From positions 3,880 through 67,879 of the forward strand of contig CAMCHJ010000008.1 in the NCBI GenBank assembly GCA_945874665.1: a DNA stretch of 64,000 nucleotides. The letters are read 5' to 3'. Positions 52,356 through 55,599 of the stretch are shown here, piece by piece. The notes below the pieces were generated by a model, which was not told the origin of the DNA, searched no databases, and saw only the letters and a list, made by a program, of their open reading frames with translations. The translations under genes were made by a program, and so were the position numbers. Source of the stretch: Chitinophaga pinensis. GTDB lineage: Bacteria; Bacteroidota; Bacteroidia; UBA7662. Position 1 is the first letter of the stretch. Every line of letters begins with the position of its first letter.

Positions 52356-52988
52356 TTAGTGAGAGGCTAGGTAATCAGCTACACCAGCGTGGGTGTCCTT
52401 CATACCGTCTTTGCCGGGCTCCCAGTTGGCTGGACAAACCTCGCCTTTTTCCTCGTGGAAAAGGAGTGCGTCAACCATGCGGAGGGCTTCGCTCACGGAG
52501 CGGCCGAGTGGGAAGTTGTTCACCACCTGGTGCTGTACAATGCCTTCTTTGTCGATGAGGAACAAGCCGCGGTAAGCGATCATTGGACCGTTGGCAATCA
52601 TTTCGCCTTCATCGTTGTAGTCGTAAGCACCGGCCAAAACACCATAATTCATGCTGATGGTTTTGGTGGTATCTGCTACGATTGGGTAAGTGATGCCCTG
52701 GATGCCGCCAGCGTTCTTTGGCATTTGCAACCAGCCCCAATGCGACTCTTCTGTGTCGGTTGAAGCAGCTACGATGGCCACACCACGCTTTTCGAACTCA
52801 GCAATTTTCTCTTGGAAGGCATGCAATTCGGTTGGACAAACAAAGGTGAAATCTTTTGGATAGAAGAAGAAAATCACGTGCTTTTTACCAAGGTACTGGT
52901 CGAGTGAGAAGTTCTCGATGATTTCGTCGCCATTTACAACGGCGCCAACACTAAAATGAGGGGCTTTGCGGCCTACTAATACTGACAT
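52356..52988 (-). CDS. typical 2-Cys peroxiredoxin (AhpC/Tsa family)
   Basis: Peroxidatic Cys in FTFVCPTE, resolving Cys in GEVCPANW; 210 aa. Confidence 0.9.
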   Translation of the reverse strand: MSVLVGRKAPHFSVGAVVNGDEIIENFSLDQYLGKKHVIFFFYPKDFTFVCPTELHAFQEKIAEFEKRGVAIVAASTDTEESHWGWLQMPKNAGGIQGITYPIVADTTKTISMNYGVLAGAYDYNDEGEMIANGPMIAYRGLFLIDKEGIVQHQVVNNFPLGRSVSEALRMVDALLFHEEKGEVCPANWEPGKDGMKDTHAGVADYLASH

Positions 52989-53094
52989 ATATTTTTGTTT
53001 TAAGTTTTTACTTGCTGCATAAGGACGTGAGGCTTGATTTGGTTCCCATGCGGTGCAAAATTACGAAAAAATGCTATCTTTGCAGCCGTTTACT

Positions 53095-53168
53095 GGTCCC
53101 GTAGCTCAGCTGGATAGAGCAACTGCCTTCTAAGCAGTAGGCCTTTGGTTCGAATCCAAACGGGATCG
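53095..53168 (+). tRNA. tRNA-Arg (anticodon TCT)
   Basis: Acceptor GGTCCCG/CGGGATC, D-arm GTAGCTCAGCTGGATAGAGC, anticodon stem ACTGC/GCAGT with loop CTTCTAA, T-loop GGTTCGAATCC. Confidence 0.9.
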
Positions 53169-53285
53169 CAACGCTCAGAAGGAGCTCGCAAGTAGGCCGA
53201 GAAAATTATTTTCGGTTTTTTCTTTCCAGGGGGTAAAGCGCTATGGAAAGTTCTATATTTGCAGTCCCAATTGGCCACGGCCAAT

Positions 53286-53372
<87 letters not shown>

Positions 53373-53392
53373 CACCTTCACAGGTAACCGCT

Positions 53393-53467
53393 CGGGGTGT
53401 AGCGTAGCCCGGTTATCGCGCCTGCTTTGGGAGCAGGAGGTCGCAAGTTCGAATCTTGCCACCCCGA
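53393..53467 (+). tRNA. tRNA-Pro (anticodon TGG)
   Basis: Acceptor CGGGGTG/CACCCCG, anticodon stem CCTGC/GCAGG with loop TTTGGGA, T-arm GCAAGTTCGAATCTTGC. Confidence 0.9.
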
Positions 53468-53469
53468 CA

Positions 53470-53511
53470 ATGAAACCCGTATCGCCGCAGGCGATGCGGG
53501 TTTTTCATTTT
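53470..53511 (+). terminator. hairpin (likely terminator of the tRNA cluster), founding member of a local hairpin family
   Basis: TGAAACCCGTATCGCC-GCAG-GCGATGCGGGTTTTTCA near-perfect inverted repeat followed by TTTTCATTTT. Confidence 0.65.
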
Positions 53512-53807
53512 AGCGCGCGTCTGCGCCGCCCCCAGCGGTGCAAGCAAGCGCTAAAATGAAAAACACGTTTCATACGCGCCAGCGTATGAACGGGTTTCAT
53601 TAGTCCTATCCCCCCAACAAGATGGGCGAGCAACGCGAGTCAATCTTGCCTCCGGCCCTCACCACAGCGCGCTTCTGCACTGCGCCCAGCAGTGCAAGGA
53701 AGCTGGAAAATGAAAAACCAGTTCAGCTGCGCCAGCAGCTGACGGGTTTCATTAGTCCTCTTCCCCCCTTCAAGATGGGCGAACGCAGTGAGTCAATCTT
53801 GCCTCCC
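53511..53807 (+). repeat. two tandem copies (period ~155 nt) of a 142-nt element, each with a conserved outer stem ATGAAAAAC/GGGTTTCAT and a covarying inner stem
   Basis: Copy A is 53511-53652 and copy B is 53666-53807. The inner stems are CGTTTCATACGC-GCCA-GCGTATGAACGG in A and CAGTTCAGCTGC-GCCA-GCAGCTGACGG in B: same loop, different but still complementary stems. The shared 3' part is ..GGGTTTCATTAGTCCT.TCCCCCC..CAAGATGGGCGA.C....GAGTCAATCTTGCCTCC. Confidence 0.8.
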
Positions 53808-53980
53808 ACCAAGTCAACCCGAGTGGGTTTTCCAATCAAAAGATACTCCCTCTTTTCATTTGCACACAATTTGCATACAAAAGCCGAAAATTGCAACAAC
53901 ACCATTGGCCTCCGCGATGGCGTAAACATCGAAAATTAAGCGTGGCTTAACACAGGTAGAGCAGCTGAAGAAGGGTTGAT

Positions 53981-54829
53981 TTAAAACTTATAAACCACTC
54001 CGTTCCCCGCAATTTCAAAGCGGGTAACCCCCTTTTTAGCGATGTAATCGCCCACTACCTGCCCAAGAATGGCCCCCGCCACCACGTCGCTGAACCAATG
54101 TTTGCCTTGGAGCATCCGACTTGCGCCATTGGCCACCGCCAAGATATAAAAAGTAATGGGCACCCAGCGATGCTCGTCGCCATAAGCCTGCCTAAAAACG
54201 GCTGCCGCTGCAAAGGCCGAGGTTACGTGTCCGGATGGAAAGCTGGTATGGATGTAGCGGCCAACGGGACCATCAAATAGGCCGGGGTTGTTGCCTGCCT
54301 CCACTGGTCGCTGCCGCTGGAAGATGTATTTAGGTACTTGCACCAAAGCACGGCTCAATATAAAGGCTTTGGCCACATTTAACCCCACCAATTGGGTATG
54401 TGGATTGTTGCGATACCGGCCTTCCAACCAAATTACCCCAGCCACCGGTATGGTTACCAGTCCGTTACCCATGGGATCGGTGTACTTCAGCACCTCTGTC
54501 CAGCGTGTACTGCGTTCGCTAAACTGGCGTAAATCGCGATCTACGTACCAAGCGGCGGTAAGGGTGGCGCCCGACAAAGCCAATTTGGCCCAATCGCTGC
54601 CGTTCCACTGTGCTGGTGCTTTGAGCAGGCCCCAGCCGTCCTGCGCAAATGATTTCAGATAGTCTTTAGAGAAAGGATGCAAACGCAAAGCAGGCGTTGA
54701 AGGCTGAGCAGCGGCCAAATAACTCCCGCTTGTACCGGTTGACTGCAAAAAGGCTGGTGACTGAGCAGCTGCGGCCATCGGCAAAAGTAGGCCGAGCAGC
54801 GCGAACAACTGGATGCGCAAGTGCTTCAT
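53981..54829 (-). CDS. PAP2 superfamily phosphatase
   Basis: Signal peptide. PAP2 motifs: ..RQRP (KX6RP-like), SFPSGH, SRMLQGKHWFSD. The start is set at MKHLRIQ to avoid a 25-nt overlap with mazG (the ORF extends to 54850). Confidence 0.8.
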   Translation of the reverse strand: MKHLRIQLFALLGLLLPMAAAAQSPAFLQSTGTSGSYLAAAQPSTPALRLHPFSKDYLKSFAQDGWGLLKAPAQWNGSDWAKLALSGATLTAAWYVDRDLRQFSERSTRWTEVLKYTDPMGNGLVTIPVAGVIWLEGRYRNNPHTQLVGLNVAKAFILSRALVQVPKYIFQRQRPVEAGNNPGLFDGPVGRYIHTSFPSGHVTSAFAAAAVFRQAYGDEHRWVPITFYILAVANGASRMLQGKHWFSDVVAGAILGQVVGDYIAKKGVTRFEIAGNGVVYKF

Positions 54830-55599
54830 AGTTTCTTTGCCTCGTTCCAAAAAGCATCCATCTCTGCTAGCGTCATGTCTTGCAACTTGCGCCCTGATGC
54901 GGCAGCGCCTTTTTCGAGGTATTGAAAGCGTTTGATGAATTTTTGGTTGGTTTTTTCGAGTGCATTTTCGGGGTTCACCTCCAAAAAACGCGCGTAATTA
55001 ATCATGCTGAATAGTAAATCGCCAAATTCGGCTTCTATTTCGGTGCTGTTGCCGGCGTCTACCTCGGCCTTTAACTCGTCCAGCTCCTCCTGCAATTTGT
55101 CCCACACCTGCTCTTGGTTGTCCCAATCAAAACCCACACCCCTGGCCTTTTCTTGGATACGGGTAGCCTTTACCATGGCCGGCAGCGACACAGGCACGCC
55201 TTCAAGCACCGAGCTTTTGCCTTCTTTGAGCTTAAGCTTCTCCCAGTTTTGTTTCACTTCCTCTTCCCCGCTCACTTTTACATCGCTGTAAATGTGGGGA
55301 TGGCGGTGTACCAGCTTGTCGCATATGCCGTTAAGCACGTCTGTAATGTCAAAAGCACCCTTCTCAGCTCCAATTTTGGCGTAAAAAACCAAGTGTAACA
55401 TCACATCACCCAGCTCTTTCTTTACTTCGTCCAAGTCGTTTTTAACGATGGCATCGGCCAATTCGTACATTTCTTCGATGGTCAACGGGCGCAGCGTTTC
55501 CATGGTTTGCTTGCGGTCCCAGGGACATTGCTCCCGCAATTCGTCCATAATGGTAAGCAAGCGACTGAACGCTTGGAGGCGGGGATCGGGTAAATGCAT
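54826..55599 (-). CDS. mazG: nucleoside triphosphate pyrophosphohydrolase MazG
   Basis: Two MazG-type EExxE repeats (LTIEEMYELADAI; ..EEVKQNWE..; second half FGDLLFSMINYARF). Confidence 0.88.
   Translation of the reverse strand: MHLPDPRLQAFSRLLTIMDELREQCPWDRKQTMETLRPLTIEEMYELADAIVKNDLDEVKKELGDVMLHLVFYAKIGAEKGAFDITDVLNGICDKLVHRHPHIYSDVKVSGEEEVKQNWEKLKLKEGKSSVLEGVPVSLPAMVKATRIQEKARGVGFDWDNQEQVWDKLQEELDELKAEVDAGNSTEIEAEFGDLLFSMINYARFLEVNPENALEKTNQKFIKRFQYLEKGAAASGRKLQDMTLAEMDAFWNEAKKL

Follow-up and report, generated by a model that had tools for sequence, protein, structure and literature searches.

A tandem array of terminator-like hairpins and tRNA-Pro end copies in an uncultured Sphingobacteriaceae-like bacterium

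What is the array of hairpins that follows the last tRNA gene of an Arg/Ser/Pro cluster in the Chitinophaga pinensis assembly GCA_945874665.1? The window, meaning the whole stretch of 64,000 nucleotides that was analyzed (contig CAMCHJ010000008.1, positions 3,880 to 67,879), carries two tandem repeat units just beyond tRNA-Pro(TGG) and its terminator, which a first-pass annotation had read as a structured noncoding RNA (ncRNA), as a structured repeat, or as the scar of a small mobile element. We conclude that the array is probably, though far from certainly, a locus-specific minisatellite, unstable through recombination, that arose from the tRNA-Pro 3′ end and the operon terminator, and that its hairpins act at most as two-way terminators.

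Architecture and covariation of the repeat units

Directly 3′ of tRNA-Pro lies the predicted intrinsic terminator of the tRNA operon, here called T1, which has an 11-bp GC-rich stem and five T residues (−25.1 kcal/mol). It is followed by two units of about 153 nt each, which are 81% identical across approximately 140 aligned nt and in which direct repeats are spaced 152 to 154 nt from start to start (Table 1), in agreement with the period of about 155 nt that had been annotated. The order within one unit is hairpin H1, hairpin H2, a C-rich spacer, and hairpin H3, the 3′ arm of which enters a copy of the tRNA-Pro 3′ end. The shared 3′ tail was also correctly described, as the tail motifs GAGTCAATCTTGCCTCC and ACGGGTTTCATTAGTCCT occur twice each at this locus and nowhere else in the window. 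Moreover, the pattern ATGAAA-N15-45-TTTCAT was present three times in the window, always at this locus, versus 0.09 occurrences expected from shuffled sequence, and neither a motif search allowing 3 mismatches nor a covariance model detected any other unit copy in the window.

The three hairpins originally annotated, one directly after tRNA-Pro and one in each unit, correspond to T1 and the two copies of H2, and they do share an outer motif. They were taken as members of one family, and here orientation has to be added: on the plus strand, T1 reads AAA-stem-TTTTT and H2 reads AAAAA-stem-TTT. H2 is thus flanked by a run of five T on the minus strand and by only UUU on the plus strand, and it is terminator-like on the minus strand only, in both units. 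Consistent with opposite polarity, the reverse complement of T1 plus H1 (53439-53552) matched the unit covariance model on the minus strand at 42.9 bits. Because the polarities are opposite and the model matches on the minus strand, H2 is T1 in reverse orientation, and the first annotated hairpin is a reverse-complement homologue of the other two. All H2 variants fold as a hairpin on both strands. In unit 1, H1 joins with the T-run of T1 and the A-run of H2 in a single long palindrome, the 33-nt arms of which (53497-53529 and 53535-53567) are 82% complementary. The initial inventory of three hairpins was incomplete in that it lacked the H1 and H3 of each unit, and H1 covaries as well. A further proposal derived the left arm of H3 from the tRNA 3′ end by inverted copying; it was unsupported, as the reverse-strand covariance-model alignment covered only T1 plus H1.

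To compare units, related loci (labeled L001, L011, etc.) were drawn from other genomes and metagenome contigs, both as DNA beside identical or similar peroxiredoxins and from two collection scans with exact unit motifs. Pairing statistics for the three helices were obtained from 22 distinct units of these relatives. Standard pairs occupied 94% of the cells versus 26 to 36% when partners were slid by 1 to 3 columns, 13 pairs had changed on both sides (9 in H1 and 4 in H2), and no shuffle reached the observed covariation score. As first annotated, the inner stems of the two H2 copies in the window differ and yet remain complementary around the same GCCA loop (CGTTTCATACGC/GCGTATGAACGG and CAGTTCAGCTGC/GCAGCTGACGG), and the two H2 types, A and B, differ by one 3-bp block that is swapped on both arms. 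T1 also carries double changes between species (ATCGCC/GGCGAT, ATCGTC/GACGAT, and ATTGCC/GGCAAT). In the P0019 lineage (L102, L103, and L105, with a peroxiredoxin 86% identical), H3 is a 13-bp stem with a compensatory change from C-G to T-A. We conclude that the covariation signal is real, that it comprises few independent events, and that the array is indeed a structured repeat with compensatory changes.

Compensatory stem changes by themselves are no indication of an RNA gene, and the double-sided changes seen here fit terminator hairpins or palindrome-templated repair as well as they fit such a gene. Comparison of G-U with A-C mismatches gave no strand call in these units, the counts being 32 versus 10 cells at 3 versus 4 sites for H1 and 5 versus 6 cells for H2. 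The locus therefore counsels caution in ncRNA discovery, since terminator-type palindromes in a DNA repeat can acquire clear compensatory changes even where there is no RNA gene.

The proposal of a structured ncRNA gene was not supported. The motif TAnnTTTG serves as the −7 box of Bacteroidota promoters, and no such box was found on either strand of 53469-53980; a scan for sigma-70-type promoters likewise returned 0 sites. Rfam searches of the units at the gathering threshold or at an E value of ≤10 yielded only tRNAs and noise and no match to the RtT family. T1, a strong terminator, stands between the tRNA operon and the units. Within the unit, conservation is lowest in the linker that joins H2 to H3, and the conserved sequence GGACUAAUGAAAC overlaps the base of the H2 stem. 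As for a small protein gene, A-type units have an arginine-rich minus-strand frame of 50 codons with a TAATG overlap (153 = 3 × 51) that recalls tpr of Escherichia coli, and this candidate was rejected on reading the sequence, as B-type units have a TGA within the frame. The ATG frames of the plus strand are not conserved either, varying in both length and register among unit variants. Because promoter box, Rfam match, and conserved open reading frame (ORF) are all lacking, because T1 stands as a barrier, and because the linker varies, some units lack H3, and some relatives lack the array, we conclude that there is no sign of a free-standing RNA gene in the units.

Copies of the tRNA-Pro end and instability of the array

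Every unit terminates in a tRNA-Pro 3′-end-like segment, in which local alignment recognized a copy of the final ~20 nt of the tRNA (GCAAGTTCGAATCTTGCCACCCCGA). Duplication of a tRNA-Pro 3′ fragment, suggested at the outset as a mark of an attachment (att) site, is therefore present in each unit. The copies in the window are degenerate, with a core of 9 to 13 nt, and shuffled sequences scored equally well in 27/2000 and 20/2000 cases for the two units, which by itself is of modest significance. The corresponding counts were 1/2000 for L011 and 0/2000 for L102, where 14 to 16 nt are exact; in the P0019 lineage, the tRNA copy is exact over 16 nt (AATCTTGCCACCCCGA). The copied segment spans the T-loop to the discriminator base. 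Moreover, the arrays of L102, L103, and L105 have 5′-truncated tRNA-Pro pseudogenes between their units. Beyond the distal exact repeat, L102 and L105 continue with CTTAG and a terminator, which resemble the flank after tRNA-Pro in relatives without an array (L108 and L114-L118). An ancestral flank of this type was not recognizable in the window.

Some of the related arrays have additional internal structure. In L102 and L105, a 109-nt module is tandemly duplicated between units and comprises a strong plus-strand terminator (CTTAGTCCCGTTTGCTTCGCAAACGGGATTTTTTTTT) and a tRNA-Pro pseudogene that lacks the first 8 nt and in which the anticodon arm is replaced (TCCCGATGAATCGGGA). In L103, L111, and L112, the H3 loop contains a microsatellite with a period of 21 to 23 nt (GTGGTTCGACTCCGCTCACCAACC or ATGGTTCGACAGGCTCACCAACC, 1 to 6 copies), which resembles the T-arm plus acceptor 3′ strand of some other tRNA.

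The array was found at a single locus per genome, directly after tRNA-Pro(TGG), in uncultured Sphingobacteriaceae-like bacteria. Across the window, 201 kb from 43 related loci, and another 58 kb, covariance-model matches fell only beside tRNA-Pro, except in L111 and L112, where the contig ends in an array fragment adjoining the peroxiredoxin gene. Scanning one genome per species (GTDB representatives) with an exact motif pair returned 6 loci, 1 of them real (L011), and an exact-motif scan of metagenome contigs returned 57, again with 1 real (L018). A dispersed repeat, either of the repetitive extragenic palindrome/bacterial interspersed mosaic element (REP/BIME) kind or of the miniature inverted-repeat transposable element type, was rejected, as there is a single locus in the window and in the 201 kb of related loci and one place in L011.

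Copy number differs widely. There is one unit in L002, L003, and L079; two in the window, L004, and L084; three in L001; one plus a truncated unit in L011 and L096; three plus a truncated unit in L018; and at least seven in L095. Copy number changes within a species, since the flanking DNA of the window, L001, L002, and L004 is ~96 to 97% identical. The array is absent, with an ordinary terminator after tRNA-Pro, from L104, L108, and L114-L118. Some units bear marks of rearrangement: a B-type unit is fused straight to T1 in L079 and L086, and L080 has an A/B chimera, which are the products expected from unequal crossover. Slippage duplications are present within H1 in L018 and L095, and the terminal units of L011, L018, and L096 lack the H3 half and are nonetheless retained. 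With 1 to at least 7 copies, the array is a possible marker for strain typing. Numerous metagenome contigs end inside units (L005-L010, L080, L086, L090, and L097-L099), as expected for a repeat that breaks assembly, and the locus is one at which short-read metagenome assemblies break.

We propose that duplication of the tRNA 3′ end may have begun with an att-type event at the tRNA-Pro T-loop and that the array would then have expanded and contracted by unequal homologous recombination or slippage between units. An att-type origin is plausible because an extent from T-loop to discriminator is usual for att repeats and because of the flank formed by CTTAG and a terminator. Present-day change is better explained by unequal recombination, because there is no integrase near the arrays and only 134 to 190 nt lie between repeats. 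The idea of a mobile-element scar thus survives in part: the distal edge of the array is a point of insertion or rearrangement in relatives, but since neither an integrase nor an element-sized insert lies between the repeats, a scar explains the origin at most. The hairpins, if functional at all, would be intrinsic terminators, with T1 stopping the tRNA operon and the reversed H2 copies stopping transcription from the other side, which in the window is the convergent PAP2-MazG operon. Double-sided stem changes would then represent maintenance of the hairpins by selection for termination and/or by palindrome-templated repair; gene conversion with T1 and the tRNA may also maintain them, and a trans-acting RNA is not indicated. 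Minus-strand transcription from PAP2 and MazG would meet H2 of unit 2 before any other terminator-like site, and a minus-strand terminator scan of 53810-53981 found no further terminator.

Like intrinsic terminators in general, T1 and H2 have GC-rich stems flanked by A and T runs and combine fast compensatory change in the stem with conserved flanks, and in the window they would stand at the ends of transcription units. Unlike them, they stand within 153-nt tandem units that include copies of a tRNA end, where terminators are not normally found, and the reversed copies face no gene in some relatives. Like minisatellites or variable-number tandem repeats, mycobacterial interspersed repetitive units (MIRU), and REP/BIME sequences, the array is intergenic, is built of palindromes, and differs in copy number between strains. 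REP/BIME and MIRU elements differ from it in being dispersed at many loci.

Several observations weigh against the proposed reading. Judged from gene order, the predicted terminator H2 sits at the convergent PAP2-MazG 3′ end in the window but not in the tRNA-Val contexts of L011, L018, and L096. In L011, L018, L087, L095, and L096, tRNA-Val and an ATP-binding cassette (ABC) transporter lie on the plus strand, which leaves no convergent gene for minus-strand terminators to serve. Reversed terminators without an obvious job in these relatives weaken any claim of a required function. In addition, TGAAAAAC, GGGTTTCATT, CAAGATGG, CAATCTTGCC, and the C-rich spacer are kept between the window and P0019 lineages, while ordinary spacers of the two, such as that from tRNA-Arg to tRNA-Ser, no longer align by eye. 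Such conservation suggests constraint beyond hairpin formation, unless it is explained by gene conversion with T1 and the tRNA. Gene conversion could account for the motifs, and a bound protein or a role as RNA may do so. The units may also contain promoters for alternative sigma factors.

Alternative readings of the array

One way in which tRNA ends could come to be repeated is through site-specific integration. The units might be footprints or usable sites of an element with a tyrosine recombinase directed at the tRNA-Pro T-loop, in which case the tRNA 3′-end copies would be direct repeats of the attL/attR type and the array would be an active landing pad, or a set of miniature integrative modules, that makes the downstream region variable. 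tRNA att repeats are reported to span 15 to 221 bp, with a mode of 20 to 25 bp, and often to start in the T-loop (bioRxiv 10.1101/2020.11.02.365908). The segment AATCTTGCCACCCCGA, running from T-loop to discriminator base, has the usual extent of a tRNA att site, and the array resembles tRNA att sites and their tandem accretions in its direct repeat of the tRNA end (exact in the P0019 lineage and degenerate in the window), in its 5′-truncated tRNA-Pro copies, and in its variable downstream context. The CTTAG and terminator that follow the distal exact repeat in L102 and L105, much like an array-less flank, point the same way. So does a 3.5-kb insert in L120 (on the contig of L001), which sits exactly at the array edge, has an imperfect direct repeat of 11 nt at its borders (GCCAAGGCAAC / GCCAAGTCAAC), and includes part of a unit, TTGCAAGCCTGCGCTAAAATGAAAA, at its right end. 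That insert, however, uses the short repeat GCCAAGKCAAC rather than the tRNA-like one. No integrase or recombinase was present beside any array, with neighbors judged by precomputed Pfam annotation and the L120 ORFs searched directly, and the 134 to 190 nt between repeats is far below the size of any known integrative element. Unlike att products, the units are homologous over their full length and co-evolve. In the window lineage, the tRNA copies share the same degeneracy in all units and species (TC-AAT for TTCGAAT), and because they are identically degenerate they are old and co-evolving rather than fresh att products. Scans of viral contigs with two unit motifs returned 5 loci, none of them real. 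We consider it unlikely that the array is an active att-site array.

Repeats of comparable design follow a tRNA operon in E. coli, and they raise the question of whether the units are processed into RNA. At tyrT-tyrV, tandem units begin right after the last tRNA gene of the operon, and each contains its last ~20 nt. On NC_000913.3, we counted 3 units at 178-nt spacing, compared with the 153-nt units here, that have GATGGTGGTGGGGGAAGGATT in common with tyrV, and the locus is annotated with the small RNA (sRNA) RttR and the ORF tpr. One tyrT unit gives rise to the annotated RttR, and presence or copy number of the repeats varies among strains (PMC3318445). By analogy, read-through of T1 or read-in from PAP2 could produce transcripts that tRNA-processing nucleases cut at H3 and its mimic of a tRNA 3′ end, releasing the units as stable, structured regulatory sRNAs as proposed for RttR. 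The shared layout of tandem units distal to a tRNA, each with a tRNA 3′ end, supports this possibility, as do pairing of the three hairpins that survives double changes, motifs conserved between lineages, and a plus-strand fold of unit 1 with a z score of −7.25.

The E. coli and Bacteroidota arrays are nevertheless different in several respects. They belong to different phyla and have no sequence or Rfam similarity, and palindromes including an inverted terminator copy dominate the units here. Moreover, a strong intrinsic terminator, T1, stands here between tRNA and repeats, and with an 11-bp GC-rich stem, five U residues, and −25 kcal/mol between tRNA-Pro and unit 1, high read-through is unlikely. 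No comparable terminator barrier is known between tRNA and repeats at E. coli tyrT. The units have no promoter box and no match in Rfam, the RtT family included, the wobble pairs show no strand bias, and a copy number of 0 to at least 7 with absence from close relatives fits poorly with a needed regulator. Processing into RttR-like sRNAs is, in our judgment, quite improbable. The comparison indicates that the oddity of tyrT has an independent counterpart in the Bacteroidota with a different internal design, in which nested palindromes occur with an inverted copy of the operon terminator. No description of the present array came up in literature searches.

A bolder proposal is that the array might be a recombination platform anchored at tRNA-Pro, with units, each closing in a mimic of the tRNA from T-loop to 3′ end, serving as reusable att-like or homology sites for integrase-less cassettes such as the L120 insert, and/or a source of RtT-like processed RNAs. 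We regard this as a long shot. If true, it would be an undescribed system specific to the Sphingobacteriaceae.

Finally, each unit could be an independent minus-strand sRNA gene of ~100 nt that runs from upstream of H3 to the H2 terminator and has a G-rich, single-stranded middle. Only on the minus strand does H2 score as a proper terminator, and H3 followed by a G-rich linker and a terminator resembles a typical sRNA layout. This reading is very improbable, as no minus-strand TAnnTTTG box occurs in the units or upstream of them, conservation is lowest in the G-rich linker, the terminal units of L011, L018, and L096 are retained without H3, and folding of the minus strand stands out less (z = −2.3 to −3.0). 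Integron attC sites, the consensus of which is RYYYAAC/GTTRRRY, were dismissed, as the outer motifs do not fit and the units hold no cassettes.

Genomic setting and variation around the array

The genes and repeat features are listed in Table 1. The nearest named relative is a Sphingobacteriaceae metagenome-assembled genome (L011) with ~85% nucleotide identity. TAnnTTTG boxes were found only at three promoters: tRNA-Arg is preceded by a box at 53075, tRNA-Ser by one at 53254, and the peroxiredoxin gene by one at 53063 on the minus strand. tRNA-Arg has its own terminator (53194-53218), and tRNA-Ser and tRNA-Pro have a separate promoter, the box at 53254. Because of this terminator and separate promoter, the tRNA "cluster," with its spacer at 53170-53285, constitutes two transcription units.

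Table 1. Positions of features at the tRNA-Pro repeat locus (window coordinates unless a related locus is named)
Feature	Position	Strand	Sequence or basis
Peroxiredoxin gene	52356-52988	−	Flanking gene, one side
tRNA-Arg(tct)	53095-53169	+	ARAGORN, Rfam
tRNA-Ser(gct)	53286-53373	+	ARAGORN, Rfam
tRNA-Pro(TGG), final gene of the Arg/Ser/Pro cluster	53393-53468	+	ARAGORN, Rfam; unit alignment
T1, intrinsic terminator of the tRNA operon (first hairpin of the first-pass annotation)	53469-53511	+	AATGAAACCCGTATCGCC GCA GGCGATGCGGGTTTTTCATTTT; terminator scan, fold
Repeat unit 1 (H2 type A)	53512-53665	None	Covariance-model match 53512-53650, 149 bits
H1 of unit 1, imperfect 15-bp hairpin	53512-53552	None	−24.6 kcal/mol; GCGCCGC/GCGGTGC
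H2 of unit 1	53555-53601	−	Inner stem TTTCATACGC/GCGTATGAA, loop GCCA; terminator scan, minus strand, 53590 to 53569
C-rich spacer before H3 of unit 1	53602-53617		
H3 of unit 1	53618-53648	None	Outer stem CAAGAT...ATCTTG, weak, −8.7 kcal/mol
tRNA-Pro 3′-end-like segment, unit 1	53634-53653	+	CGCGAG-TC-AATCTTGCCTCC versus CGCAAGTTCGAATCTTGCCACC in the tRNA
Repeat unit 2 (H2 type B)	53666-53810	None	Covariance-model match 53666-53803, 141 bits
H1 of unit 2	53666-53706	None	TGCACTGC/GCAGTGCA versus GCGCCGC/GCGGTGC in unit 1
H2 of unit 2	53709-53753	−	Inner stem TTCAGCTGC/GCAGCTGA, loop GCCA; terminator scan, minus strand, 53742 to 53723
H3 of unit 2	53771-53801	None	Fold, pairing statistics; preceded by C-rich spacer
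tRNA-Pro 3′-end-like segment, unit 2	53795-53807	+	AATCTTGCCTCCC
Distal edge of the array	53808-53833	None	CCAAGTCAACCCGAGTGGGTTTTCC
PAP2 gene	53981-54850	−	Flanking gene, other side; stop codon at 53981
MazG gene	Same side as PAP2	−	Flanking gene
SufB gene	Same side as PAP2	+	Flanking gene
H3-loop microsatellite	L103 1270-1400	−	
H3-loop microsatellite	L111 90-120		
H3-loop microsatellite	L112 25-100		

The array marks the point at which downstream gene order changes, as it is followed by PAP2, by the 3.5-kb insert, by other sequence in L004, or by tRNA-Val. L004 leaves the PAP2 context ~90 nt past the array. In L011, L018, L087, L095, and L096, which represent three other species, the plus-strand genes after the array are tRNA-Val(gac) and a transporter of the MacB type; in relatives without an array, the MacB-type ABC transporter is on the other side of the peroxiredoxin gene.

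In some strains, the insert seen in L120 (9060-12700) separates the array from PAP2; it carries four genes, for a protein of 118 aa, a divergent MetK, and proteins of 140 and 281 aa. The MetK is only ~54% identical to ordinary Bacteroidota MetK. A search of the four ORFs gave no Pfam or PADLOC match except for MetK, and no integrase. The sequence GCCAAGKCAAC, the short direct repeat that borders this insert, is present at the distal edge of the array.

Part of this edge sequence also recurs inside another array. In L087, the second unit after tRNA-Pro is a variant module with different nested inverted repeats (AAGTCAACCC/GGGTTGACTT and CTGCTATAAAAGT/ACTTTTATAGCA) that keeps the H1-like center, the GCCA-loop hairpin, and the tail of ordinary units. 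The module opens with AAGTCAACCCGAG from the distal edge, its first 13 nt being those found just past the array in the window (53811-53823).

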